DNA of 55,362 bases, counting the filler, from Sphacelaria rigidula (Eukaryota), in the NCBI GenBank assembly GCA_964200075.2. It is 6 parts of 6 records of this genome, joined end to end, with 100 filler letters (N's around TTAATTAATTAA, not from the genome) between each part and the next. Parts side by side here need not be neighbours in the genome. Positions count along the whole stretch, not along the records: positions 46,221 to 55,362 come from CAXNAA020009196.1; 5 more parts are not named here. One strand, 5' to 3'. Below, one piece after another: positions 9,145 to 55,362 of this stretch. A model generated the notes under the pieces. It ran no database searches. It was not told the origin of the DNA and saw only the letters and a program-made list of their open reading frames with translations. A program made the translations under genes and the position numbers. How positions within the stretch are numbered: position 1 is the first letter of the stretch; the number at the start of each line of letters is the position of its first letter.

Positions 9145-9244
9145 NNNNNNNNNNNNNNNNNNNNNNNNNNNNNNNNNNNNNNNNNNNNTTAATTAATTAA
9201 NNNNNNNNNNNNNNNNNNNNNNNNNNNNNNNNNNNNNNNNNNNN
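9145..9244. other. Artificial linker 44N-TTAATTAATTAA-44N
   Basis: Six-frame stop spacer inside an N run. Confidence 0.98.
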
Positions 9245-18170: not shown

Positions 18171-18292
18171 TTCACAGACTGAGCGTCCGGAGACATTCGG
18201 GGGTTTCCAGTGGCTGAGGGCGTGGTCATTGAAGGGGGGGGGGGGGGCGGGGGGTGGGGGGGGCGGGGCAGCGGGGGGGGGTGCGGGGCTGC

Positions 18293-18388
18293 TGTACTCA
18301 TGATCATGCACGCCATAGTCATAAGACCATTGACCTCGCATCCCTACAAAGCCGGGACGGAGCACGCCGGGTTCTCGCCGGACTAGGC
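18293..18388 (-). repeat. Repeat family A copy (cut by linker)
   Basis: gtactcatgatcatgcacgccatagtc...tccctacaaagccgggacggagcac. Confidence 0.9.
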
Positions 18389-18488
18389 NNNNNNNNNNNN
18401 NNNNNNNNNNNNNNNNNNNNNNNNNNNNNNNNTTAATTAATTAANNNNNNNNNNNNNNNNNNNNNNNNNNNNNNNNNNNNNNNNNNNN
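18389..18488. other. Artificial linker 44N-TTAATTAATTAA-44N
   Basis: Same spacer as at 9145. Confidence 0.98.
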
Positions 18489-18898
18489 GGGGGGGGGGGG
18501 GGGGGGGGGGGGGGGGGGCTTTTGATTGGACGAGAGAAGAGGCTCATAAGTGTGTCCGACGACCTGCCACACTCGCGGTGCGCTTTATTTGATTCAAAAC
18601 TGTGTCAATCGGTATAAATGAGCGTGTTTTTTTAAAATTTAAGACAAGCTCGTTCGAGCAACCTCTGCTGCTTTTCACCGACGACTTGACTTGGAATTTT
18701 GTGCAAGAAGTGGCCCGAAATACCCCCCCCACGCACCCCCCCCACCCGCCACCCCCACCCACCCAAGCTCACANNNNNNNNNNACAAGCTCGTTCGGACA
18801 CCCCCCGCCTCCTTTCCCCCCCGCCTTGACTTGGATTTTTTTGCAAAAAGGGGCCCGAAACCCCCCCCCCCCCCCCCCCCCCTATCGTAGGATGACTC
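18489..18898. mobile_element. Partial copy of the Sola-like MITE at 41830
   Basis: Shares the body (cgacctgccacactcgcggtgcgctt; acaagctcgttcgagcaac) and right TIR cctatcgtaggatgactc. The internal duplication across a 10-N gap (18774-18783) is probably an assembly artefact. Confidence 0.85.
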
Positions 18899-19906: not shown

Positions 19907-19939
19907 GTGAGTGAGAACTATTGCGCGCGGGGGGAGAGG

Positions 19940-20520
19940 GGGTACTCATGATCTTGCCTGGCGTAGTCGTAAGACCATTGACCTCGCATCCCTTCATAGC
20001 CGGGGCTGAGCACGCCGGGTTTTCGCCGGACCAGGCTCGCCATGAATCGAGGGTCGGACGAATCAATGATTCGTCTGGAAATCAATTGATTTTAGTGTGA
20101 ATGATTCGTACCGGACGAATCAATCCTCACCTTAGGCTTTGATTTCAGCGTTGCAAGCCTGGTACAGGCGGCCCGGAGACGTGTAATGGCGCAAAAGTTG
20201 CATGGGAGACCTACTTGACCAGCGGTCAACGTTTTTCTCTCTTTTGAGCAATCACGCCTTAACAATCGTAGATTTAGCAATTCGAATCGGCCATGATTCG
20301 TCCCAACCATGGAATCACTCACCAAACGTGGACCGCTGTGATGTGTTCGGCTAGTCGCATGAGTGGTGAGGTGCATCCCGCGAAGATTGTTCGGTCCGAA
20401 GCGTACTGGTTATCTTGCATATGGATGACAGCTTCGAATGAGTTGCTTCGTTACCTTGGTATTCCCACCCCCAGAGATAGCCACGGGTTAATTACACACT
20501 GCCGAATGGGTGTCTCACCA
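19940..20520 (-). repeat. Repeat family A copy split by a ~270-bp insertion (20041-20312)
   Basis: gctcgc|aatcactcacc is contiguous in the 51.5 kb copy but separated here by a gaatc/gattc-rich insert with imperfect inverted ends. Confidence 0.85.
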
Positions 20521-22594: not shown

Positions 22595-22900
22595 TGATGT
22601 ATCTGATTGATATCTCGATTGACTGGGGCACAGTAACTAATCCTCTGGGGATACCCGGCCGTGGCTACACGATAGGCGATGGATGATGAACGATAGGTGA
22701 TACGTGATGGATCGATGTACCCGAGATTGAAAAAAAAATGGAAGAAGCACTCGGAGGAGATCAGTGAAGAAAGCAGAAAAAGAGTTGTGGAATAGAAAAG
22801 GCGAACAGAGTGGGCTGAAGAAAATACGAAAGAGATGAGACAAACCAACGAAACAAAAAAGCAAGGGTAAAGAAAAGAAGTAGAATACAACATGTGTTGA
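22595..22900 (-). mobile_element. Retroposon 3' fragment with an (AATC)n-type tail
   Basis: Reverse complement matches tctcgggtac...ccacggc.gg...cagtcaatc at 47085-47170 and 23321-23400. Confidence 0.55.
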
Positions 22901-22914
22901 TCGACTGGCAAATT

Positions 22915-23102
22915 GATTCGTTGGTGGGTTGGTCGGTCGGTCGGTTGGCTGGTTCGTCGGTTGGTTGGTGGGTTGGTTCGTCGCGTGGTCGGCTGGCTGG
23001 TGGGCTGGCTGGTTGGTTCGTCGGTCGGTCGGTCGGTCGGTGGGTTGGTTCGTCGCGCGGTCGTTTGGCTGGTCACCTGGCTGGCTGGTGGGTGGGTTGG
23101 TT
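22915..23102. repeat. (GGTT/GGTC/GGCT)n compound microsatellite
   Basis: Tetranucleotide tract with an internal higher-order duplication (ggtgggttggttcgtcgcg twice). Confidence 0.9.
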
Positions 23103-24180
23103 GTCGTATATTCAGTGTTTCCTGGAGAATCCGGCGTGGATTGGATCATGATCAGCACTCTTGCACCGCGTCAAATGTCGTCTAACGAACTTAGCCAACT
23201 ACTTTTTTGTTCACTCGCGTACTCACGCCCTTAGACGGTGACAATCAGATACTTCGAAGGGGAAAAAAGAACCCAGGGCATCGGGAATCGAACCCCACGT
23301 TCTCTCCACTTCTTTTTTGTTGGGTACGTCTATTATGAGACCACGGCTGGACCCCTGGGGGGGTCAGTTCAAGTGCGACAATCAGTCAATCAATCAAAAA
23401 CAGCGAGAGTGGGGCATCTGTTGAATCGGCATTAATCCCACTCGAGAAGGCATGCATGGTCCAGATGGACTAAAAGGCATTCGCTGAGGGTTCATGATGA
23501 CTGTCATACCATTTTAATTTGCACCACCGAGAATCGACCCACCTACTCCCGCAATGAGAAGCGAAAGTCACCTCTGTCAATACAATTGACGCACGCACGG
23601 CCATGTGCAGCCCTTTCACGACCGACACCTCGCTAACGTACGATCGCTGCCTCAAGGGGAGAGTCTCTCTATCTGGAGCAGCAATCTGTGCGTGCTCCAC
23701 ACTTCATTCACGAACATGTACTTGAGAATGGAAGCACTCACGCAGCGTCCGCGCTTGGGCAGTGTTTCGCAAGCGCATATAACAGAGCTCTTTCTCACCA
23801 GGGGCTGATCAGGAAAGAGATATCTTTATAACTACCCTGAAATAATTAATACAAAAATATGCTGCAAACGGGGTACATCTGGCTTGTGGTGTATTCGACA
23901 GGTTACTCCAGAGTGTAATTATGCACACATATATATATTTATAAATATTTACCTCGCTGATCCTTGTATCTTGAAATGGCCAAAAAGGGACAGGGTGTGT
24001 TTTTTCACGTATCTCTTTATCTGACCATTATAGTACCCGACAAATAAAAAAAAGGTATGCCTTGTCCCCCCCCCGCCCCCTGCTTCCCTCGCGCGCGCGC
24101 TATCTTATTACTTTCGTTCGATTTTTTGTCCTTGTCCCTGATGTGTACGATGAACGTGCGTATTCCGTTGAAATTCACAG

Positions 24181-25738: not shown

Positions 25739-26133
25739 CAGACTTTTTCAAGGTTGTGTTTTGTAGGGTATGGAATTCCTTGCAGAAGTTACAGAAACAT
25801 TGGAAACCGATCTGGAAGTCTTACATAAATTACAAAACTGTCGGGTGCAGGTTTGAAAATCTTCCAGGAATTACAGAACCAGTCGGGTACGGTTTGGGAG
25901 GCTTGCAGAGAACCTTACTGGCAATCGGATATTTCTTCAAGGGCATACCCGCGCTCCGGGTATGGGTATACATTATGTATAGAACTCACATATCTACTGG
26001 GCAAGGGTTTGGGTATGGAAGACAAACAGAACTCACAGAAGCTGTCGGGTAGGGTATGGAGGTTGCGTAGAAAACCGTACCCGCAACCGGGGTCCTTATC
26101 AAGACCATACCTGTGTCCCTGGTAACGGTACTG
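25739..26133. repeat. Non-autonomous element with internal ~40-bp gggta.gg...cagaa subrepeats
   Basis: Starts cagactttttcaag and ends ggtactg, with recurring (c)gggta(t/c)gg and t(c)acagaa motifs. It abuts and truncates a family A copy. Confidence 0.55.
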
Positions 26134-26218
26134 CATGCCGTAGCCACATGACCGTTGATCCCGCATCCCTACAAAGCCGGGACGGAGCACGCCGGGTTTT
26201 CGCCGGACCAGGCTCGCT
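26131..26218 (-). repeat. Repeat family A partial copy
   Basis: cgcatccctacaaagccgggacggagcacgccgggttttcgccggaccaggctcgc. Confidence 0.9.
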
Positions 26219-26790: not shown

Positions 26791-26862
26791 GTGAGGGACA
26801 CAAAACGGTGATTATGTCGTTCGATTGGGATGCAGTGAGAGGTGGGTGGGGAGAGAGGGAGG

Positions 26863-27142
26863 GTGTACTCATGACCTTGCATGCCGTAGGCACAAGACCG
26901 TTGACCTCGCATCCCTACAAAGCCGGCATGCAGCACGGCGGGTTTTGCTATTAATCTCCAAGCGCGGAGCGTCGTCATGTGTTTGTTTAGCGAGTCGCTA
27001 GAAAGGTAAGCTGCATCCTGCTGAGATTGTTTGGCTTGTCTTGCATGCGTATGACAGCTTTGAATGAGTTGCTTGTTTTTCTGGTGTTGCCACTTCCAGA
27101 GACAGTTACGGGGTACACACAGCCTCACGGGAGTCTCGCCAT
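26863..27142 (-). repeat. Repeat family A near full-length copy
   Basis: Colinear with the reverse complement of 80-390. Confidence 0.85.
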
Positions 27143-27632: not shown

Positions 27633-27732
27633 NNNNNNNNNNNNNNNNNNNNNNNNNNNNNNNNNNNNNNNNNNNNTTAATTAATTAANNNNNNNNNNNN
27701 NNNNNNNNNNNNNNNNNNNNNNNNNNNNNNNN
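27633..27732. other. Artificial linker 44N-TTAATTAATTAA-44N
   Basis: Same spacer. Confidence 0.98.
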
Positions 27733-27800: not shown

Positions 27801-29480
27801 AAGTACGTTCTCTTGATCGTGGATCGAGCCTCTAAGTTCCCATTCGGTTTCCCACTCCAGACAAAGTAGGCTGAAAGTATAGCTCGCATCCTTGCCGAGC
27901 TAGGCTTGACATCCGGCATGCCGCAGAGAATCCGCCGTGACGGAGGAAAATATTTTAGAGCCGAGGTGGTGGTGTCGCAGACGCAAAGATGTACCTGTGT
28001 TAGACGCGCAGGGATCTCTACCAGTCGGGGACACGTTTCACACCAGACTTCGCTGGCCACCTAATTACCGTGACACTTTCACTCCGATACGGTCAAACCT
28101 ACGGTAAAAACCACTTAACACTGGTTAGATCTTGCCTGTCTTAGTCCGTAGGCAGAAGTGAAGATGTGCGCAAGCCTTTTGCTCAGCAAGTGGGTCGATC
28201 CTTGGTGGATGGTGGATGTTGTTAGCAGCAGTCAGCAAATGTGAAGTGCAATACAATAGTCGGGAGACGATTATCAGTTTGCCTTCAGAATTGGTCTTTG
28301 CTTTCGCGTGTTTTAACTTGTGACCCGGTAGGGGGCGAAGTCACACGGTATTTTTCCCAAATCATCATCAGACTGAAGAAGGTGTAGCCATGATCCAATT
28401 GCTCTATAGTCTACTATACAGGGTCATTATCCACCCTGTAACAGTGGCGCACATGTGCAGGTGGCCAAAAACAGATATTGCTTTCGGGTCCTCCGATTAC
28501 TCCAGAAGCCAAGGAGCAGTCGAGAGATTGGGGGGATGGCTACTGGACATGTCGGCAGAGCTGTGTAAGTCGTGGCCCCAGAGATGGGATGAGTATGTCT
28601 CTCCCGCACTCTGGGTCAAGCGTACCTTGCCTGACGTTTCCCTACCCTCCGGCATATCCCCGTTCAAGCTTTTGTTCGGTCAAAAGCCCCGCACGTCTCT
28701 AGGTTCGCTCATTCCCATATCTCACGAGGGGGAATCGAGCAAAGGACTGGACTCCTACGTAGAACAGCGCAGACAGAACCTCAAGGAGGTACATCTAGCG
28801 CTTGAGAAGAGGCACGCCGCGAAGGAATCGACTCGTGCGAAAATGAATGCCTCTATCATGAGACCCTCCGCCGGGGTGACTGTTAGAGAAGATCTGGTCA
28901 TGGTAAGCGAATCAGACAGCACGGTACACCGCGGCGGGAAGGGTAGGAAAGTGCAACACGGAAGGTATACGGGGCCCTGGAGAGTGAAGGAAGTACTAAT
29001 GACAGGCCTTAGCGTAGAAGTAGTCATGCAGGACCGTAAACGTCGTACACGTAGGGTAACCATCTCGAAGTTAAAACTCTTTCATGTTCGCCCGCCACAC
29101 CTTAGCCACTCCATAGCTGACGAGTTTGCTCAACACGGATGGGGTACAGATTGGAAGGTCAACACCACACCTCACCAAATCCCGAATTCATCATCTTCAT
29201 AGATCGCCGCGAGATCTACTCCACGACAGGCACGAAGCATTGGGAATAAAACGCGAGGACTTTTGGGGGGAAGGTGTCGGACTGGTTGCCTGAGAGCCAG
29301 CTTCGAGACAGATTTTTTCCTTTCGAACTAGACGTTTTCCACGCACTTTGGCACCTGTGCCGCCCCGCCGTTGCACCCCATCCGCCCTCGCACTCGAAGA
29401 AGCGCCCCTCTCCCCTGTCGCGCAGTGGTGCCTTGAAGCCTTTTTCCACAGGTTTCACCTTTTGGAAGGACTTCGGAAGT
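27801..29480 (+). mobile_element. Ty3/Gypsy integrase (DDE core, GPW motif, chromo-like tail), degenerate and split by a solo LTR
   Basis: YVLLIVDRASKFPFGFPL...IRRDGG..FRAEVV | AHMCRW...QGAVERLGGWL...WDEYVSPALW...SPFKLLFG...YTGPWRV...SDWLPESQL. Confidence 0.9.
27973..28443. mobile_element. Solo LTR (471 bp) inserted in the integrase
   Basis: TGT...ACA termini with GTGG on both flanks (27969-27972, 28444-28447). Removing it restores the frame AEVV-AHMCRW. Confidence 0.85.
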
Positions 29481-35908: not shown

Positions 35909-36385
35909 TCAAGCAGGAAATGCCTTGCCAGGTCGACTCTGCAGCTTGAACTTTATCTTGAATGGCCCCCTTCCTCCCGTCGTCCCGTCTCTCGCCTCAC
36001 CCGACGTTTTCCCAGCCCCTACTGGACGTCTTTTCGGCATACCCAATCCCGACAAAAGCACCTCCTTTCCATCGTACATCTCCTGTCCCTTCGTAGTCAA
36101 CTTTATCGGGGGGTCCGATTTGCTCAACAATGGCACACTAATCTTCACGCCTCGCCTGGCCTGTTCCTCTGTCAGCTTGCACTCATAGACAAGGGTGTCA
36201 CCCTCGCGGGTGAGGAACCGGTGTGGCTTCTGCCGGAGAACGAAGCAAACGCTCCTCAAACCGTTCGCGGTGGGCGGGAACGTTATGCGTGTCCCTTCTT
36301 TCCATCCCGGCTTGACCACGATCTCGTACACGTGAGATATCCGTCGCTTTTGCCCCGTCCTGGGGTCGGTCACCATGTCCGTCAC
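35909..36385 (-). CDS. Terminal exon of a DnaJ/Hsp40 gene (C-terminal substrate-binding domain, DNAJB-like)
   Basis: Acceptor gcacgcag|GTGACG; YEIVVKPGWKEGTRITF...FVLRQKPHRFLTREGDTLVY...GLGMPKR...RGPFKIKFKL to the stop. Upstream exons are not in this piece. Confidence 0.9.
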   Translation of the reverse strand: MTDMVTDPRTGQKRRISHVYEIVVKPGWKEGTRITFPPTANGLRSVCFVLRQKPHRFLTREGDTLVYECKLTEEQARRGVKISVPLLSKSDPPIKLTTKGQEMYDGKEVLLSGLGMPKRRPVGAGKTSGEARDGTTGGRGPFKIKFKLQSRPGKAFPA

Positions 36386-36677
36386 CTGCGTGCATCGAGG
36401 GTTACGGCACGTGGGGTGTAACGGGAGCTAGGTCGAACAGCACCCTGAAAATATCAGCCGACGACGGTATTTTCATGAACGCAGGCCCCCTTCATAGCCC
36501 AAGTAGCCTAGTAGGTGCATACTACTATTAAAGGAGCTCAGACCTGTGTTTCGTCCGACCGTGCTGTGGCGGGCGGTGTCCATGTCCTCGACCGATTGAG
36601 TCGAGCACACTTCAGTTTCAGCTGTCGTGCTCCCCTGGGTGAATATCTACGTGTTTGTCCGGGTATTCGTGCGCACT

Positions 36678-36876: not shown

Positions 36877-36976
36877 NNNNNNNNNNNNNNNNNNNNNNNN
36901 NNNNNNNNNNNNNNNNNNNNTTAATTAATTAANNNNNNNNNNNNNNNNNNNNNNNNNNNNNNNNNNNNNNNNNNNN
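36877..36976. other. Artificial linker 44N-TTAATTAATTAA-44N
   Basis: Same spacer. Confidence 0.98.
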
Positions 36977-43892: not shown

Positions 43893-45719
43893 CTAGAATC
43901 ACCGAAACGCACGTGTGTGGAGGTGTAGCACAGCAGGGTTCGAACGGAAAAAGGTATTGCCGACTCGCTTAGGTCCCAACGTACTGTCCTCGATCACTTC
44001 GGTGCATAACCGTGTTCCCTAGCGCGAGAAGTGGTTCGTTTTTCTACAACCGATCGCCCCTCGCCACGTTTCACCAAAGACCTACCGACCTAAATACACC
44101 TTCACGGCCGAAACCGCCGATAGAGGTTTTCACACCTAGCCTCTTTCTAGCTGCGTGGACGATACCGCAAGTCAGTACTGTCGAGGACGCTGAAGCTCAT
44201 CGCTCACTGACCGACCCCACAATATTTTCATCTATATCTTATATTATGCGGTGTCTTCATTTTCCGGCATCACCAACATCAACGATACTGTGAACTCACC
44301 CACGCACAGCCCAGAGATGCTGTCCCGAAGCCCGCTAGTGCACTGACAAAAATCAGCTGTTGGGTTGCCGCTCGCGATGCCATTGGCTGAAAGCATAGCA
44401 AAACGGGAGTTGTCGTTTAGTCGGTGGTTTTACACAGAACGTGGTGGGGCGATTTTTTCGGGGGAAAAGGCACTGCGACGAGTACTTGCGACAAAGCGAT
44501 CCGAAGCCTACGGTTTGCCGACCCACAGCTCACGTGATGTTTTCATGGCGTGAGACACGCATGTTTCGTACACTTCCTGTGGAGGATACTGGACGTCCCA
44601 CATGGTGTGAACGAGCCATTTGGCCGGTGGCGGCGACGCTTCCTACCGCTTCCAGAAATACGCAGTCGGCGTTACGTTTTTCTCTGATAAAATACAATGT
44701 TTTCGAGTCGATGTGTATCCCACATCATCACTTTTCCCGCGGCGACGGGTACTAGTTCGTCCAGAATTCGACCAAGAAATATCGGGCCAAGTTTTATACC
44801 AAACCATGGAGTATCAACCAGGCAAACGATGTCTGAATTGCAATTACACACCTAGGCACACATTTTTGACACAGCACGCCGTGGTGCCACAGACCGCGGG
44901 GTTGACAGTGCAACCTGCGCGGAGCAAGCGAGAACAGAGTAAAAACGATTTCAAAGAGGACCCAGAAAACAGTGGGGAACCCTGCACTGACGGCGGCGAA
45001 ATACAACCATCAGAAGATTTGGTGTGGATACGAAGCTTCTAATCCTACGGGTTTCCATTCCAAATAAACGATCCGTCCCCAACTTGTAACATCCCGTTTT
45101 ATCTGGGAAAAGGAGTGCACACCCAAGAGATGAAGAGAAGGAGTAGTCATCAATCTTTTACAAGAATGAGACAAGGCTGATAAACGTGCGTATCGTTTTT
45201 GTTACTGTCATCTTCCGCACGCTTACAAGGGGTGGCGAAGTATTGTGCGACGGAAAGTGAGGGGGCCTCAGGGAAAGGTGCAATCGTACGACGTCATCTC
45301 CCAGGAACACGCGTCGGTGCTCGTTTTCACGTGGGATACCCGGGTAAGTTTGCGGTTGGTGTTGTTGTTGTTGTTAGCAGCGGCGAGTTTTCGTCCTTGC
45401 TTTGATAACGTGGCTTCCGTCATTCTCCTGCTCGGAGTTCCGTGCGTTGCGGTGAACATAGAAAACGCTTATATTTGAGGGAGGTTTTTGTCCGGGGTAC
45501 AAACACTGTTTACAGCCGTCCCATCTCGGGCATGACTGCAAGCTTCCATGGTTGGAGGAGCATTGATTCGTCCGATTTCTTCTTTTATGATACATGTCGC
45601 CGAATCAATCCCCGGTCTTTGTTTTCAGCGTGTCATCCCCCAGGTACGCGCACCCCACAGGCATGTGGAATGGCGTACAATATGCCATGGTACGTTTCTT
45701 ACCCGCGGTCAACGCTCCA

Positions 45720-46047
45720 GGAAACTTTAGAGGAAGAACGCTACTGAGCACGGTGGGGAAAACATTCTGTGAGATTCTGAACGACAGAGTAGGAGCGATG
45801 CTAGAAAAGGAAGAGAAAATCAACGAGGCAACAGCAGAATTTAGACCAAACAGTAGATGCGTAGACCATGTGTACACATCACGCGAGATTGTTCAGGGTA
45901 GGAAAAACACCGGGTGGACAACGTACTGTTTTTTTCTGGACGTGCAAAAGGCGTTTGACACAGTATGGAGAAATGGGTTGTGGAAAAGGTTGGAGGAAGC
46001 TGGGACCAGAGGAAAGATGCGGAGAATAGTGAAAAAGATGACAGAAT
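45720..46047 (+). mobile_element. LINE (non-LTR) reverse transcriptase fragment
   Basis: GNFRGRTLLSTVGKTFCEILNDR...FRPNSRCVDHV...CFFLDVQKAFDTVWRNGLW, the N-terminal RT motifs. Truncated at both ends. Confidence 0.92.
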
Positions 46048-46120
46048 ATAACAGGGTTACCAGAAAAATGAGAACGTATTTTGAAATGAGAATCAACCGC
46101 TCCCCGGGATTGTGTCCATT

Positions 46121-46220
46121 NNNNNNNNNNNNNNNNNNNNNNNNNNNNNNNNNNNNNNNNNNNNTTAATTAATTAANNNNNNNNNNNNNNNNNNNNNNNN
46201 NNNNNNNNNNNNNNNNNNNN
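46121..46220. other. Artificial linker 44N-TTAATTAATTAA-44N
   Basis: Same spacer. Confidence 0.98.
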
Positions 46221-46408
46221 CCGCGTGCTTAGAGGACCGCGCCGTAGTTCAAAACTCCTCAGGATCGATGTTTTTCAAAACCAATCGGGCCAGTCCCTGC
46301 AGGTACCACGCCTCTGACCATAACCCCAACACTAACCCTAACCCTAACCATGGGAATGTTCAAATTTCGATGCGGTCTTCTAAGCACGCGGTCCTCTCAC
46401 GCATTACA
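46221..46408. mobile_element. TGT..ACA MITE copy 1 (left end cut by the linker) with (CCCTAA)n inside
   Basis: Ends gcggtcctctcacgcattaca and contains ctaaccctaaccctaacc (46332-46349). It is the reverse complement of 46558-46746. Confidence 0.85.
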
Positions 46409-46557
46409 GCGTGTGCCAGGGAAGAAATCGGCTGATCTTTTGGGGCTATGAACTCGTCCTCAGGAACGGGACGGGCTGAAAGTATGACAAAATAGAACTA
46501 CTTCAAAGATGGACACTGCTGGGTTAGAGTAGTAGGATCAACACCGTTGGGCTCCTG

Positions 46558-46746
46558 TGTAATGCGTGAGAGGGCCGCGCGCTTAGAGGACCGCTTCTGA
46601 ATTTGAACAGCCCTCGGGTTAGGATTAGGGTCAGTGTTGGGGTTAGGGTCGGGGGCGTGGTTCCTGCAGGGACTGGCCCGATTGGTTTCGAAACACGTCG
46701 ATCCTGAGGTGTTTTGGACTACGGTGCGGTCCTCTCACGCATTACA
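46558..46746. mobile_element. Ginger-like MITE (189 bp, TGT..ACA, 4-bp TSD)
   Basis: 21-bp TIR tgtaatgcgtgagagggccgc / gcggtcctctcacgcattaca (1 mismatch), CCTG on both flanks and internal ttaggg-like repeats. Confidence 0.85.
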
Positions 46747-46839: not shown

Positions 46840-47170
46840 CTATTTCCCCCAGGTGGATGTAAGTCGCGGTTAGTGCCTCAGTACAGTGGGGTTAGGATTC
46901 ATGGGTTGAGAGCTCACACCCAAACTATCGTTCTGCAGCCGAAGTAGATTGCGATCGCAATCTGCTCCCATCCATTTCTGCCCTTTTCCTCATGGTTCTC
47001 GTATTTTTCAGTCTACTATTTTGTGTCCGTTACCTCTTTCTGTTTTGTTCCCCTTCCTTCAGGGCGTGTTTCCGCTTTGTTTCATCTCGGGTACGTTGAT
47101 CATGTGACCACGGCTGGATCCCTGGGGGATCAGATACTGTGTGGCCATCAGTCAATCGAATCAATCGGAT
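46840..47170 (+). mobile_element. Retroposon 3' region with an (AATC)n-type tail
   Basis: The 3' ~85 bp matches 23321-23400 and the reverse complement of 22595-22730. The 5' boundary is uncertain. Confidence 0.55.
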
Positions 47171-47438
47171 CAACACCAAGCTGTGGTCCATGTGGTGCAC
47201 ATACGCCATGTGTCTCGCAAGAGCGGCCGCAGTTTCTCAGATAGAAGCTGCCAAAGTAGATAAAGCACACGGTTTCCGTGCATGTCAAACCGATGGCGTA
47301 CCTCGTGAAGAAATAAACCCTCACATTTTTCGAAGCGGAAGTTTTTCACCCCCAAAAAGTCGGAGATTTCGTCCGGAAAAATGTCCCGCTAATAATATAC
47401 CCCTCACTTTACAAAGCTAAAACCCGATATAAGTGTTG

Positions 47439-47754
47439 CACACGCGGCCATTTGGCTACCTCCGAAATTCCTCCAGACTGGTCAACTTTTCGAGCCTCCA
47501 GAGGAATTAAACGCCTCCGGAGGGGTGCGCGACCCTCCAGAGGATACTCTTTGGTTTCCTCCAGAGGAATTCATTTCCTCCGGAGGCTTTTTTTTGCCTC
47601 CGGAGGCCCGCGCATAGCCCATATTCCTCCGGAGGGGTGCGCGGCCCTCCGGATCGGTAGAGTTTGGCTTCCTCCAGAGGGATTGTAGGCCTCCGGAGGC
47701 TTGTTTTTCCCCTGGAGGGCCGCGCATCCCTCCGCAGGCAAATGGCCGCGTGTG
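47439..47754. mobile_element. MITE with a 16-bp TIR, filled with CCTCC(G/A)GAGG palindromes
   Basis: Perfect TIR cacacgcggccatttg / caaatggccgcgtgtg, flanks gtgttg / atgttg, and about ten internal cctcc(g/a)gagg motifs. Confidence 0.88.
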
Positions 47755-49142
47755 ATGTTGACTTCATTCAATACGTGATGGTACACCAGCAAAAAAATAA
47801 CGAAGGCGCGCTGTTTTCTCGAGCCAAGGAGTACTTTTGTTTCAAGTGCTGTGCAGCGAGGTGTCTAGCGGGCATTGCCACAACAATGCAGGCGGGTGTT
47901 ACTGCAACGACTGTTGCGAACGCGGGAAGCTGTTGCGAACAGCACAAAACAGACATGAGAGGCTTTTACAGCCATGATTTTTGCGCATTTGAACAGGACA
48001 ACGCTGACTATTGTCAAACTGTTGGCAACAAGCTCCTGAAAAAAAAAAATCAAGTACACCGACTTGCCCTTGACTGATTTCGTGGTCTGCCGTAACAAAC
48101 GGGGGGCGAGGTGATGTGCCCTGGCACTCTGCAATAGAGGTGCAAAACGATGGGCACTCTTATTACTCCCAAGAAAAATATGATGCTGATTAGTCACCAT
48201 CGTTCACTCGCGGTCAGTCCAAAATTTCAACCTTTCTTTTTCCAAAAGTGACCTAATCACCCTGGATGACAACACCAGTCGACCAGGGATTATCCACTGA
48301 TGATAAGTTTCTTCTCAAAAGAGATTGGTCATTCAAAAACTGCGGGCATACTTTACATATATCTCCTCTACTACCTAGTAAGCTGTTGTGACAGCATTCG
48401 GGCTACACAGTACAAAATTCTACATCCTCCACCCGGTCACATATCCTTGAACTTCACGAAGTACCAATCAGTTCATTTCTTCGACTTTCTTACTACGCGT
48501 CTCAATACACACTTATATACACATGTGCATTCGCATACGCAGGTAAATACATGCATAATAATAGGTGCATCTATCGTGCCGGCGATATGAATTTCTGCTA
48601 TGCGCCTCAACGCACATATGGGTATCTACTCATGCTGTCAAGACATACAACCGCATGAGATTCCGCACGGGTCACGCATCTACCGCACTACGACTTGGAA
48701 TTTTCTTGTCCAAAACTTGATGAACTGCAAGTAACAACATAATCTCTTCAAGGACAACGCTCTTCTCGCAAAGAAGCCCCTCAGAGATCACGAACACGGC
48801 CACGAAGACAGACAAAATTTTCAATATTTAAATGACTGACCAACGGAACGATGCTCAGCAATTTCCACACGATACTCGTTTCGATTTACACAACAGTAAG
48901 GTTTCTCGGGCAACACGGCTACCCACGTGTGTTCTATTCAATGATGTATTAAATTAAACCAAATCAATTTGAAAACATTTAGCGAAATGTCAAAGGTTGG
49001 CTCGTGCATCATCACAAGTTATGTTGGCCATTCATTCGCTTCCAGGGTGCAAACACGCTGCAATACTACAGTAGTACGCTACTACACTCGAAGAGAAGAG
49101 ACCTTTCGTTCGCATTCCACTCGAGAATGACTTTATCTTCTG

Positions 49143-51203
49143 CTATTTCTCGGCGTCGACCAAAGCCTTGATGGCGGAAGTGTAGGTTACTTCATTCGGA
49201 GAGACACCTTTCGCTTTCATTTCCATCAAAAGCGACAATGCGCGTTCCGCCTGCCCACTGTCCGCGCACGCGTTGATGGCTGTGCTGTAGCTTATCACAT
49301 CCGCAGGGATACCCGCTGCCTGCATCTCTGTCAAAAGAGACAATGCCTCCTTCAAGAGACCACCATCTCCGCATGCCTTGATAGCCGAATTGTACGTTAT
49401 TTCATTTGGGGGAATACCTTTCGCCTTCATCTCCCTCAAAAGCGACAAGGCCATTGCGGCCTGTCCACCGTCCCCAGACGAACACGCCTTGATAGCTGTG
49501 CTGTAGCAAATGATGTCAGGGGAGATGCCTGCCGCCTTCATTTCCATCCAAAGCGACATCGCCCGTGCCGGCTGCTCAGCGTACCCACACGCTTTGATGG
49601 CAAGGCTGTAGCTCACCACATCCGGAATGATACCGTCCGCCTTCATTTGGGTCAAATATGACAAGGACTCTTCCCAACGACCCGCGTTCAAGCAAACCTT
49701 GATGACAGAGTTGTACGTTATTTTATTCGGGTAGGGGCCTTTTGTCCTCATCTCCTGCAAAAGCGACAATGCCGGCTCGTACCCCTCGCCGCCCTCGCCG
49801 CTGCAGCACGCCTCAATGGCCGTGCTGTAGCTCACAACATCGGGGGAGACACCTACCCTCCGCATCTCTGCAAAAAGCGACAGCGCCTCACGCCATCGTC
49901 CAGCGTCTCCGCACGCCTTGACGGCCAAGTTGTAGGTGATTGTACTCGGGGAGGGGCCTTCCGTCCTCATCTCCATCAGAAGTGACAATGCCTGTTCCGG
50001 TTGCCCGGCTTGGCCGCACGCTTTGATGGCCAAGTTGTACACAATTTCATTCGGTGAGATACCCGCCGCCTGCATCTCTCTCAAAAGCGTCACACCCAAC
50101 TTCCACTGCCCAGCATCCCCGCACACTTTGATGGCCGCACTGTACACTATGTTATCGGGCCGACATTTCGCCTTAATTTCCGACAAAAGCAGCAATGCCC
50201 GTTTCGGCTGCCCAGCATTCCCACACGCGGTGATGGCCGTGCTGTAGCTCACCATGTCCGGCGACGTGCCCGCCGCCTGCATTTCCGTCAAAATTGATAA
50301 TGCCTCCTCCAACCGCCTAGCGTCTCCGCACGCCTTGATGGCCGAATTATAGCTAACGATATCCGGGAGGTGACCCTTTGTCTTCATCTCCGTCAAAAGC
50401 AACAATGCCGCTCGCCACTGCCCACCATCCCCGCACGCCTTGATGGCCGAGTTGTAACTCACCATGTCCGGGGAGAGACCTTCCGTCTGCATCTTCTTCA
50501 AAAGCCGCAATGCTCGGGCTGATTGCCCACTGTCCCCACAAGCTTTGATGGCCGAATTGTACGTTATTTCATCTGGGGAAATGCCCGCCGATTCCATCTC
50601 CGTCAAGAGCGATAAGGCCTCCTCCCACCGCCCAGCGTCTCCGCAAGCCTTGATGGCCGAGTTGTAGCTCACCACGTCGGGATGCACCACTCCCTTGTGT
50701 TTCATGAACTTCAATGTTGCAATGGCTGCTTTCCAGTTACCACATCTCGCGGCAACGTCGATGACGCGATTGTAAAAATATGAATTCACAACCAAATCTG
50801 CGTCGTTGCGACCCAGGGCTTCAAGGAGAACTTTCTCCGTCGTCTCCCAGTCTCGCCGCAACCGCGCCTGCTTCAGTCGACTCATATAGGAAGTGTGAAT
50901 TTTCCAAATATCGTCACGTAACCGCCCACCTCGCCCCTTACCCCGCCCTTCCCGTTCGCTGCGCATACCATCACCCTGATTACCTCCACGACCACCCGTC
51001 ATGCCTCCACGACCTCGCCTCCTGCTAACGGGTGGCATATCCGTCATCATTGAAGGGGAGTAGATACCGGTTTGTTCTTCACGAGAAAGGCCAACATGGC
51101 AAGTATATGGATATCTCCCAAATGCCGTCACCGAGGCTTTGAGCGAGTTCACTGCGAAGGCCGGGAGCATGGTTCTCAGCACGTGCAGCTCGACCTGAAA
51201 CAT
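49143..51203 (-). CDS. P-class pentatricopeptide repeat (PPR) protein, 15 full repeats plus 1 partial, uninterrupted frame
   Basis: Tandem 34-38 aa repeats (VVSYNSAIKACGDAGRWEEALSLLTEMESAGISPD type) and an RGG-rich N-terminal segment. The start is uncertain (ATG 51203 or 51170, or a splice acceptor tttcag near 51195). The ORF-track extension to 51515 runs through Ns and repeat A. Confidence 0.95.
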   Translation of the reverse strand: MFQVELHVLRTMLPAFAVNSLKASVTAFGRYPYTCHVGLSREEQTGIYSPSMMTDMPPVSRRRGRGGMTGGRGGNQGDGMRSEREGRGKGRGGRLRDDIWKIHTSYMSRLKQARLRRDWETTEKVLLEALGRNDADLVVNSYFYNRVIDVAARCGNWKAAIATLKFMKHKGVVHPDVVSYNSAIKACGDAGRWEEALSLLTEMESAGISPDEITYNSAIKACGDSGQSARALRLLKKMQTEGLSPDMVSYNSAIKACGDGGQWRAALLLLTEMKTKGHLPDIVSYNSAIKACGDARRLEEALSILTEMQAAGTSPDMVSYSTAITACGNAGQPKRALLLLSEIKAKCRPDNIVYSAAIKVCGDAGQWKLGVTLLREMQAAGISPNEIVYNLAIKACGQAGQPEQALSLLMEMRTEGPSPSTITYNLAVKACGDAGRWREALSLFAEMRRVGVSPDVVSYSTAIEACCSGEGGEGYEPALSLLQEMRTKGPYPNKITYNSVIKVCLNAGRWEESLSYLTQMKADGIIPDVVSYSLAIKACGYAEQPARAMSLWMEMKAAGISPDIICYSTAIKACSSGDGGQAAMALSLLREMKAKGIPPNEITYNSAIKACGDGGLLKEALSLLTEMQAAGIPADVISYSTAINACADSGQAERALSLLMEMKAKGVSPNEVTYTSAIKALVDAEK

Positions 51204-51424
51204 TGAACACCGTATCGTCAACGACACAGGTTGGGGGGGGGGGGGGGGGGGGCCACCCCTTTTTTCCTTGCTCGACCCCGTGGGCCCGTGCACCCCCCCC
51301 CCGTCCGGGGCCAGCAGGGTGNNNNNNNNNNGAGGCACGTCGCCATCATTTGTTGCTTGCCCTGGCCTGTTGACCATCCTCGACGCCCTCTTTTCGACGA
51401 CTCTGCTGGGGGGGGGGGGAAGGG

Positions 51425-51595
51425 GAACTCGTGATCTTGCATGCCATAGTCTGTTGGCCATTGACCTCGCATCCCTACAAAGCCGGGACGGAGCACGCCG
51501 GGTTTTTGCTCGCAATCACTCACCAAGCGCAACGCGCCGTGATGTGTTCGGCGAGTCGCATGAGGGGTGAGCTGCATCCTGCTAAAATTGTTCGG
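51425..51595 (-). repeat. Repeat family A copy upstream of the PPR gene
   Basis: ttgacctcgcatccctacaaagccgggacggagcacgccggg...gagctgcatcctgc. Confidence 0.9.
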
Positions 51596-51908
51596 CGGTG
51601 GGGAGGGGGAGAGGGAGGGGGATTGAATCAATTACTACACCGCCGCTCGGGTCGAACCTAGGAGACGGCGCTCGATCTGATCGTGAGAATCTGATCTCTA
51701 CGAACACTTCGTTCCACGTTGGTGAAGGAGCCCGTGAAACTTTGTCTTTAAAACAGCGAAATGGGCAGCTTTGGAAAAGAACTGCAATACTACCCTCGAC
51801 ATCATCTACCCGGTGCGCGGTGATACAGTCTCTGCCATTGTCCCACAACACCCACAATTTTTCACTCAATCATATATCTGTCGCACTTTGGGCCCCTCTT
51901 CTTCCTCG

Positions 51909-52003
51909 GGCCGAGTCCCACGTGAAGGTGTTCGCAGCAGGGGCTTCATTGTGAGACGGTATAGTAAGAGCAACGATTAACCGCCTTCACGTGGGACTTG
52001 GCC
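51909..52003. repeat. 95-bp hairpin or mini-MITE
   Basis: ggccgagtcccacgtgaagg ... ccttcacgtgggacttggcc (20-bp arms, 1 mismatch). Confidence 0.75.
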
Positions 52004-52435
52004 TTGAAGTACACCGAACCCCGCCCACCACAGGGGCAATGGTGCATGCCAATTTTCACCCCCATAAAAGTGCAGCGCTCACCGTACATGCTTGTGGCAT
52101 TCATCAACACCTTTCAATCCCTCTAGCGCAAAACCCAACCACATGGCCTTCAGGTAGACAACTATAAACATGTGAAAAGCAACCGTTTCTACTGAACAAT
52201 GATCATGAGTCAGGAGTCGCGGGCCGCGGAACTCACGATATATCGTCATTGCGGGTGGTGCTTGCAGGCAAATAAAAACTGCTCAGCGATAGCGTCGAGA
52301 TTGGCGGCGTTGAAGGCCATCCCATGCTATTGTTCCGAGAAGAGATCATAATCTCGAAGAATCAATTCCCTGGACGCCGGACCTCCTATCGAATCAGTAT
52401 TGCCGGATGGCGGTACCCGAGAAAAATGGCCGGAG

Positions 52436-52535
52436 GTGTACGCATGATCTTGCATCTCGTAGTCATAAGGTCATTAATCTTGTATCCCTACAAAGCCGGG
52501 ACGGAGCACGCCTGGTCTTCGCCGGACCAGGCTAG
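52436..52535 (-). repeat. Repeat family A partial copy
   Basis: tatccctacaaagccgggacggagcacgcctggtcttcgccggaccaggct. Confidence 0.88.
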
Positions 52536-55059
52536 AACCCAGCATCGGGAGGGTGGGAGGGGAAGGGGAGTAATTTTCAAATCAAAGTATGACACTCATC
52601 GACGGTAAACTTAGTTTTCGACCGTGAAACAAACCGACATTTGATGCTACGATGAGAATCGAGCAAACGGAGTTGACATACGCCCGTATCGGACCCCAAA
52701 CCGGAACGGTCATACGACGTTGACAGTACCACATCCCGCTGCTAGGTGGAGTCAAGCAGGATTTGGAAGACTCCACGCGGGCGGCCGGTGGAATCACACG
52801 GAATAATGCCAATGGGGCATGAAAACGTTCACACGTCGGACAGCGCATAAGCTACCTCGCCATCACCTCTCATCAGCGTATTCATCCCGATCATGGGCTA
52901 GCTCATTTGGTCCCGTTTTTCCACACTTACAACCTACAGCACTGGACGTCGACCACGCGGAGTAGCGCAAAGGTACAGTAGCGCTTGGCTTCTCGGACCC
53001 TCTTGTCACGTACATTGTGTTTTTGTACAACAGATCTGAGAGACCTCTTCAATCAGTCACTTGAGGTAGCCTATGGGCTGTCTGACGTGTGGAGAAGTCG
53101 TCTAATGGCTCCTGCAGGAGTACAACCTCAGCCTGCGGGTCGCGCTAGATCAGACGCCGATCTTGATGGCACAAAAGCACACAACATGCGGATAGACGAG
53201 GGACCTAGAACCGTCGAAATTATGCAAGTGGGTGTGTCGCGAGTGTGTCACTCACGGAGTATGCGATCGCTTGTGCCGTGGCGTGCCCTCGGCTTCTGCG
53301 GACATCATGTCGAGCGCAAGTGGGTACACCTCAGCGGAGATGCGGCTGCGAGGGCTGTGCGCTTGTTAGGTCGTTTGCATGCCCCGGACGATCACTGCGG
53401 GCACTAGAACCATCAGTACCACTTCGAGCGGTTGGACGTAATGCCACGCTCAACACGTACGAGATGTTGCGTCCCGCGCCCCCCCAGGGATATTTGGGCA
53501 GTCGGACGGCAACTTTGCCCATGCTGGTTCAGCGGGCTTTCCGAGTGGGAGGATAAATCAGAGCTTTCTGCTCGTTTGCAAGTTGGAGGATGGGGCTGCA
53601 CTTTCTTCGCGGGGTGCTACGTGATCTGCGCCGGGGCCTATGTGGAGTGGGAGTTTTAAAGTATTTCGGCGCGTCTGCGAGTGCGTAGCACGTCCTCTGG
53701 AGACAAATGCCCTTGCACGCTCTTAGTCCCTAGCATGGTGCGTCGCTCGTGCATATTTGACAAATGGGTCAGCTGGGTGGCGGATTAGCCCAGATGTCAA
53801 GGTTTCCATTGTGGGGGCTGTGCCGTAGTATGAAAAGAGCTGGAATATGACCGGAGTGTCGCAACCGTTGACATTCGAACCGTTCGGCATTTGCAAGTAG
53901 CCTTGAAGTGCTGCATTTTGCACTTGTCCGCCGTTCCACTGTTTCGTGCACATTCTTCTTGACACAAGCGTGACTCGTGTTCTACATACAAATTGCTATA
54001 CAAATTGTCACACAAAGTTTCGCCCTTTTCGGCCAGACACGGAACATACACAAGCACGAGAGATGCCAAGACGTATATCCCTCTGAAAAAAATTCCATGT
54101 ATCTACACCGAAATCTACGTGAGCTGTCACTGATCTTGCCAAATTTACGCTCGACGATAGTAGCACCAACGTTCGACGAAAAATGTCCTCCCCATCATCA
54201 TTTTCATGCTACGGGGGGCCCACGTGTTGACTACTGCATCATCACCTCCTACGGTTGGACTCCCTCATTGTGTACGGTTTCACCAGCGCTGCTGCAGCTC
54301 GTCGAAGGTAACGGTGACCGTCCCGCTCTTTTTCAACCCACCATTGGCTCTTTCATCTTCGCAGCCGAGGATTTGTTTTACATGCCACTTCCTCTATTTT
54401 TTCCACACCTTGGACAATAGATTATGTTGTCAGAGAAAATGTACTGCGTACAGCATGGAGCCTATTGTCTGTTGCAACATACGCAATGGTCGATACTGCA
54501 CGCACAACACTTTTTCGACAGTGTACTCCAGGGTGTGCTTTTCTTTGCAGCTCCCACGCGCGCGATTACGGTATGTACGAGCATGGACAACAGGTGTCCA
54601 TGAGAGCAAAGTACACTACGGTACACAGCATACAGCACACTCAATAATTGCAGCGAGCAGACCTGTCTCGTCAAATGCTCTGTGGATAGATGTGTCGCCA
54701 ATTCTGTGCCTGGTGTTCCAGCGTGCGGAAGATGCCGTCCAAACAACAACGAAAGCCATTGTAACAAGCACGGTGTTATCGCTGCACATGGCTCTTGAAG
54801 GGTAAATTCAAGCTCTCTGGACCTCGCGGTACACTGCACTTGCGACACTTTACTCGTGTCGGACACGTCCAACTTGTCACCACGGCCAGAGTCACAGCGG
54901 AACAGTCACCGTTAATGCGCGACAACCGATCAGCTTATCAATCAATCAATCAATTAAAGTAACGCTAATGATCCCGACAATATGGCGTCGTCTCAGTGGC
55001 ATGAGATGCAACGTAGTGCGAGAGTAGCTGTCTTTCGCAAATATACCAAGCTGCTCCGC

Positions 55060-55185
55060 GCCCGCGGGGGGGGGAGGCGTGGCTTACTTTTTTGGTTCTT
55101 GCCCTGAGTCATTTGGCCGCTGACCACGCATCTCTTCCGAGATGGAGCACCGTTCCTATTTCTAACAGAAGACACCTCCAGCATG
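55060..55185 (-). repeat. Subfamily A' copy
   Basis: Reverse complement matches 37835-37960 (ggaggtg...aggaacggtgctcc.tctcg.aag.gatgcgtggtca). Confidence 0.7.
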
Positions 55186-55362
55186 TGGGCGTTCATCATG
55201 TTTCTCCGATACATGACATAAAAACCTCCTAGATATATTTTCCCCTTCCTGTTTCGCTCTCGCCGTCCGGGGGGGGGGGGGGGACCGTCCGTTTTATTTT
55301 TTTTTTTCCCCAGTGGTTTTACCCTTGGGGAAGCATCCCCTTTGGGCAAGGCCCCCAAGGGG

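Follow-up and report, generated by a model that had tools for sequence, protein, structure and literature searches.

A P-class PPR gene of Sphacelaria rigidula with fifteen canonical code pairs and a predicted RNA target

Introduction

Among the nuclear-encoded factors that regulate organelle RNA in a sequence-specific manner, PPR proteins are the main group, and their code has been worked out almost wholly in land plants. The plant code table, reportedly from Barkan in 2012 and Shen/Yin in 2016, assigns the residue pairs at position 5 and the last position of the repeats (5/last pairs) to bases; binding is parallel, with the protein running N- to C-terminal along the RNA from 5' to 3', as in the PPR10 and dPPR structures. 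Maize PPR10 (4m57; 4m59 with psaJ RNA bound) is a chloroplast atpH/psaJ RNA stabiliser and translation activator; this land-plant protein is P-class and without accessory domain; many of its repeats are non-canonical, and its target is known. The designer PPRs (5i9f and 5i9h; the cPPRs 5orq, 4wsl and 4pjq) are consensus proteins built of near-identical modules, and the solved structure 5i9f includes its U10 RNA.

Residues 5 and last are named as the specificity determinants of PPRs in a 2026 review of dinoflagellate RNA-binding proteins, which speaks of a "plant code" and in which the evidence listed for PPRs is only at the sequence level (PMC12787238). Code-based prediction of sites is imperfect even for maize PPR10, in which several important nucleotides are unexplained by the code and the contribution of some repeats is small (PMC5340921); in yeast Dmr1 the code is described as only rudimentary (PMC7430664). 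The same two papers agree that nearly all characterised PPR proteins function in organelles (PMC7430664, PMC5340921). A Nannochloropsis paper does no more than count PPR genes, 26 in number (PMC3750441); PPR is absent from the main text of a large brown-alga genomics preprint, and our literature search found no study on PPR targets in brown algae or other stramenopiles.

Results

Family assignment and fold

The window, i.e. the whole stretch of Sphacelaria rigidula DNA that was analysed (GCA_964200075.2; 55,362 nucleotides in six joined parts), carries on its minus strand a gene whose product is, with near certainty, a PPR protein. Pfam PPR_2 matched it at E 1.2e-129 (422.8 bits against a cut-off of 30, in 14 stretches), together with PPR_3 (314.1 bits, cut-off 25), PPR (302.6 bits, cut-off 25), PPR_1 (268 bits, cut-off 23.8) and PPR_long (169 bits, cut-off 27). 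No non-repeat Pfam domain was found in the protein, nor an E, DYW, SMR or NYN C-terminal domain; its motifs are all P-type, without P-L-S alternation, and it terminates in a half repeat. The single-sequence AF2 model (mean pLDDT 86.7, pTM 0.69) is an unbroken solenoid of 33 consecutive helices; it stays continuous across the loop insertions in repeats 10 and 13, and its final helix (H570-584) is the terminal half repeat. As judged from sequence and model, the protein is P-class and lacks a catalytic or accessory domain.

The designers dPPR-U10 (5i9f, E 3.2e-123) and dPPR-U8G2 (5i9h, E 4.7e-122) ranked first in the phmmer search against the PDB, ahead of a tobacco pTAC2-like protein and maize PPR10, and the alignments to both designers are in register, with Asn-5 and Asp-last falling under the designers' code columns; such closeness is expected, because designer PPRs are consensus proteins and any consensus-like natural tract matches them best. 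The top Foldseek match was maize PPR10 (4m57, E 8.9e-25), with TMq 0.57-0.59 to the RNA-bound PPR10-psaJ structure (4m59) and 34-43% identity to the designers. Pfam, PDB phmmer, the AF2 solenoid and Foldseek thus bear out the P-class PPR assignment made in the sequence-only reading, and its remark on a resemblance to designer PPRs agrees with the rank of 5i9f and the register of the code columns.

The Sphacelaria protein and the designers are alike in repeat register, positions 5 and last included, and in the use of ND for U. In contrast to the designers and their near-identical modules, the Sphacelaria protein is natural, with a mean inter-repeat identity of 49%, and carries Ser rather than Thr at position 5 for purines; in addition, it has insertions in the loops of repeats 10 and 13, repeat 6 is shortened by a deletion, and the N-terminal linker is RG-rich. 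Maize PPR10, its best structural match, is similar in class, in the lack of an accessory domain and in repeat number, whereas the identity between the two proteins is 22-24%. With regard to the RFL type, a tandem cluster of close paralogues was not seen, there being no second PPR ORF in the 55-kb window (six joined parts).

Extent and structure of the gene

The PPR gene is represented by its last, and possibly only, coding exon (49143..51194, minus strand), an uninterrupted frame of 683 codons plus a stop at 49143-49145. It forms the PPR part, studied here, of the longest ORF by far in the window (minus strand, 49143-51515). An acceptor-like TTTCAG was read from the sequence immediately upstream of the exon (51195..51200, minus strand), and the first in-frame ATG (51168..51170, minus strand) could be the start codon, provided that the exon upstream is not translated. 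The window has about 50% G+C and only four ORFs of at least 200 residues in 55 kb (six joined parts); it is eukaryotic nuclear DNA, and the PPR gene is probably an ordinary nuclear gene of a brown-alga-related lineage.

The window sequence is present in 9 of 11 public runs (three studies), none of them recorded as RNA and one labelled "algae metagenome", and contigs were obtained from four (X1, X3, X5 and X7); the RNA status of these runs is a guess ("RNA?" for X3 and X5, "?" for X7), X1 being DNA. Contigs of X3, X5 and X7 match 48059/48207-50671 and 50643-51197 with zero differences. Those extending out of the coding region to 48059 or 48207 hint weakly at a probable 3' UTR of about 0.94-1.08 kb (48059..49142, minus strand). 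At the other end, the contigs of the same three runs (669-670 nt) depart from the window sequence at 51197, 2-3 nt from the acceptor-like site (TTTCAG/G), with 114-115 extra letters that map nowhere on it, while the contig of the DNA run continues past 51197 to 51223; no joint to an upstream exon was seen in the run contigs within 47000-53500. Contig depth over the gene is 33-57 in X3, X5 and X7 and only 2-4 over the flank 51717-53500; in X1 it is flat, at about 57-68. These data give a weak hint that the gene is transcribed, with a 3' UTR of about 1 kb and at least one further upstream exon, weak because the RNA label of the runs is only guessed.

All four runs also contain a contig form that goes from 49447 back to 49369 with 26 other letters between, the repeated 79 nt and these 26 nt amounting to one extra 105-nt repeat unit. 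Summed contig depth is raised over 49387-49603 and 50472-50688, and parts of the PPR gene are overlain by extra contigs that are at least 95% alike. We take this as a sign of an allele, or of close paralogues in which stretches of the repeats recur almost unchanged at other places in the genome. With other contigs this similar and one form carrying the extra 105-nt unit, the gene may belong to a recently diversifying paralogue group.

Other features of the window were noted. Directly upstream of the PPR gene, a copy of a high-copy, short interspersed repeat adjoins a 10-N gap and long G/C homopolymers. This repeat has at least seven copies of 70-87% identity (51340-51773, 18277-18378, 19925-20026, 26102-26203, 26848-26949, 52421-52522 and, inverted, 277-399), with a contig depth of about 1.5e5 in X3, X5 and X7 and 3.8e6 in the DNA run X1; Rfam gave no family at gathering score on 47000-55362, where the interspersed repeat was without a match. 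The 10-N runs at 18774-18783 and 51322-51331 look like real gaps. The filler between the parts shows as pairs of 44-N runs with a spacing of 9244 bases (9145-9244, 18389-18488, 27633-27732, 36877-36976 and 46121-46220), which do not look like gaps of the assembly. A DnaJ C-terminal domain exon (35909-36427, minus strand; Pfam DnaJ_C, E 2.4e-11) has 20 matches of 58-70% identity, four of which carry an organism name, in each case that of a brown alga (Ascophyllum and three Ectocarpus species); the exon can thereby serve to mark the lineage. A reverse-transcriptase fragment (45591-46118, plus strand; RVT_1, E 2.5e-10) runs into the filler at 46121-46220, and an inverted repeat of 178 nt lies beyond that filler (46231-46735). 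A G/T-rich, microsatellite-like array with an 8-nt period and 17 overlapping copies (22888-23111) sits within an ORF of low complexity that has much Pro, Thr and Asn. The ORF 28324-29202 looked by eye like an integrase, a label that was dropped as it had no Pfam match.

Repeats and code residues

Fifteen PPR repeats (49194-50783, minus strand) were delimited by a parse anchored on the invariant Tyr-4, in which "last" is the residue four ahead of the Tyr-4 of the next repeat, and by an HMM-based parse; Pfam PPR_2 matches the protein in 14 stretches. Their lengths, from repeat 1 to 15, are 36, 35, 35, 35, 35, 34, 35, 35, 35, 38, 35, 35, 37, 35 and 35 residues: 11 of the 15 have exactly 35, and loop indels account for the other four (34, 36, 37 and 38). 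The tract is followed by a C-terminal half repeat of 17 residues (49146-49193, minus strand), with helix A only, Thr at position 5 and no "last" residue. It is preceded by an N-terminal cap hairpin of two helices without code residues (50811..50897, minus strand; model helices H2-14 and H18-30) and by an Arg/Gly-rich linker with RG/RGG repeats (50916..51026, minus strand, from the translation); residues 61-100, counted from the first Met, include 11 R+K and 9 G.

The 5/last pairs of repeats 1-15 are ND five times, SD, SN, NS, ND, SN, ND, SD, SN, ND and SN. The HMM-based parse reproduces all 15, so that the list of pairs given in the sequence-only reading matched exactly in both parses, and its statement that all are canonical also stood, each combination being assigned to a base by the plant code. 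Every one of the 15 full repeats carries a code-competent pair (ND, NS, SD or SN), with N nine times and S six times at position 5, and D ten times, N four times and S once at the last position. The specificity positions are not hypervariable among the repeats, being confined to N/S (position 5) and D/N/S (last): between-repeat entropy is 0.97 bit at position 5 and 1.16 bit at position 35, and more than 2.2 bit at positions 1, 17, 19, 25 and 32. The focusing of variation at specificity positions that would mark an RFL-type protein was thus not seen, in a comparison between repeats within one protein and not between paralogues.

The scaffold, which had been called very uniform, proved moderately so: the pairwise identity between repeats averages 49% (range 23-80%), identity to the repeat consensus is 51-86% for repeats 2-15, Tyr-4 is invariant and Gly-31, Ile-8, Cys-11, Met-27 and Pro-34 are nearly so. 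Repeat 1 is degenerate (37% identity to the consensus). The loop indels in four repeats might interrupt a contiguous reading of RNA. At the DNA level, the tract has a 105-nt periodicity, with 68% matches at that period in TRF and 51-80% identity among repeats 2-15; from these values, the repeat array is read as old, and not as recently amplified.

Homologues and the code tract

In a homologue search, 455 of 8000 scored candidates matched the protein at E of 0.001 or below, with 23-44% identity among the 120 matches listed; the named ones belong to brown algae, Chrysoparadoxa, a raphidophyte, dinoflagellates and land plants. An exhaustive search of 1.84 billion representatives gave 38,454 at the same threshold (26-47% identity among the 150 matches listed), and residues 1-175 alone gave none at E of 0.01 or below among 2227 candidates. 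No evident orthologue was detected: the best identity is 47% among the matches listed from the 1.84 billion representatives, and none of the 120 homologues listed from the first search shares the order of code pairs, so none of them is an evident orthologue.

PPRs of Ectocarpus, Laminaria, Scytosiphon, Discosporangium, Chrysoparadoxa and Polarella (E 1e-140 to 1e-60) have the same flavour of helix A ("...Y-N/S-x-A-I-x-A-C..."), and some brown-algal, ochrophyte and dinoflagellate PPRs likewise carry RG-rich stretches before the repeat tract; their tracts, in contrast, are more often interrupted, and among the matches listed none is above 44% identity, or above 47% with the exhaustive search included. 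The longest canonical run is 15 pairs in the Sphacelaria protein and 10 in any of the 120 homologues listed, and the median share of canonical pairs is 0.48 in the 116 of these 120 that have at least eight detected repeats, a comparison biased toward the Sphacelaria protein, because the repeat-detecting HMM was built from its own 35-residue repeats. A share of 100% was reached in only four listed homologues, all of land plants and each with 8-10 detected repeats. On the sequences compared, the run of 15 canonical pairs is longer than chance would give. Within its very large family (the 38,454 representatives above), the gene is ordinary and stands out only by its unusually clean code tract.

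Predicted RNA target

Read from N- to C-terminus with the plant code table, the 15 pairs give 5'-UUUUUGACUAUGAUA-3', the same target that had been predicted in the sequence-only reading, which is a correct read-out of the pairs under that code; for matching, the exact form of the 15-mer was YYYYYGACYAYGAYA. At the ND and NS positions the other pyrimidine would be tolerated as well, and the Thr of the half repeat may call for a purine after the predicted 15-mer. The reading had also taken the AUG after a U-rich run as a sign of a translation-start target. This argument found no support and is weak: when the same 15 letters are shuffled, AUG turns up in 28% of the orderings and at least five consecutive U in 15%. 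A start codon in particular is an improbable target, and it is doubtful that the literal 15-mer would be the in vivo site.

By chance, the degenerate pattern would be matched exactly about 0.03-0.04 times per 170 kb of single strand; as a control, the degenerate site had 0 matches in the 55-kb window, with 0.08 expected. A metagenome scan for the literal 15-mer returned at least 119 stretches of scattered contexts and GC contents, and the ATG of the motif opens an ORF of at least 100 residues in 5 of 119 among the matches listed. As no organelle context was recognised among these at least 119 metagenome matches, the scan speaks neither for nor against the prediction.

Discussion

The gene found in Sphacelaria encodes an uninterrupted P-type tract with two code-competent residues in each full repeat, and our best explanation, to which we give a probability of about 0.6 as a whole, is that of a nuclear P-class PPR protein imported into an organelle, binding one RNA site through the code and acting passively. 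Plastid proteins of ochrophytes need a bipartite signal with a signal-peptide-like hydrophobic core. The 30 residues after the first in-frame Met of the exon (51168-51170) include three basic and no acidic residues, without a long hydrophobic or signal-peptide-like core; if this Met is the start, a mitochondrial presequence would be more plausible than a bipartite plastid signal, and on the partial N-terminus the mitochondrion appears somewhat more likely than the plastid as the site of import.

The analysis shows the gene, its fold class and its code residues, and from these we infer the RNA binding, the compartment, the site and the effect. The protein most likely enters an organelle, and its binding of organellar RNA is likely. 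There, the tract would bind one single-stranded RNA segment of about 15-16 nt in parallel orientation, one nucleotide per repeat, each base being read by Asn or Ser at position 5 together with Asp, Asn or Ser at the last position. Its action would be passive, as for other P-class proteins without further domains: it could block exonucleases, define processed RNA ends or open local structure for ribosomes, a role of barrier or remodeller that we model on PPR10, with effects on RNA ends, stability and ribosome access.

A sequence-specific organellar protein could nevertheless have an in vivo site that departs from the literal read-out, by several differences, by a looped-out gap or by use of only part of the tract, as happens with the natural PPRs of plants. 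We consider this possible, if on the unlikely side: repeat 1 has only 37% identity to the consensus, there are loop indels in repeats 6, 10 and 13, a 5' half such as the predicted one (UUUUU) gives little specificity in organelle genomes that are AT-rich, and PPR10 itself recognises nucleotides that the code does not explain and has repeats that add little (PMC5340921); however, not one of the 15 pairs is non-canonical and the scaffold comes near that of designers that bind as designed, and therefore the literal reading should work better here than in a typical natural PPR protein.

Very unlikely, in our opinion, is a structural or ribosome-associated protein (a mitoribosomal rPPR or an assembly factor) contacting rRNA or proteins without a 15-nt code site. 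The plant mitoribosomal PPRs mL102 (E 2.6e-33), mS80, mS77 and mL104 and the PEP-associated pTAC2/PAP2 (E 4.9e-94 to 1.3e-68) are among the PDB matches, and the Arg/Gly-rich linker could lend unspecific RNA affinity, but these matches are much weaker than those to the designer PPRs and PPR10, and the presence of only code-competent residues at both specificity positions in 15 of 15 repeats speaks for base reading. RNA-binding proteins of the nucleus and cytoplasm often have RG/RGG tracts, and those in the linker would fit a protein outside the organelles, either a PPR of the cytosol or nucleus with nuclear transcripts as its targets or a paralogue that evolves fast and has no fixed target; no targeting peptide was established on the partial N-terminus, and the contigs at least 95% alike over parts of the gene, with the one form bearing an extra 105-nt unit, are a hint of close paralogues. 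Such a non-organellar protein is nonetheless highly improbable: characterised PPRs are nearly all organellar (PMC7430664, PMC5340921), the 55-kb window has no other PPR ORF, and the degenerate site lacks a match there.

The import of the protein into an organelle and code-read binding of one RNA site are kept as the preferred reading. A natural, uninterrupted tract of 15 canonical repeats in a brown-alga-related lineage is a convenient test of the transfer of the code to stramenopiles. That the plant PPR code is unchanged in the red-plastid (ochrophyte) lineage, and that this protein has one unique conserved site in the plastid or mitochondrial transcriptome, is a joint proposition we hold to be unlikely; if true, it would be the first case in stramenopiles of a PPR-RNA pair verified through the code.
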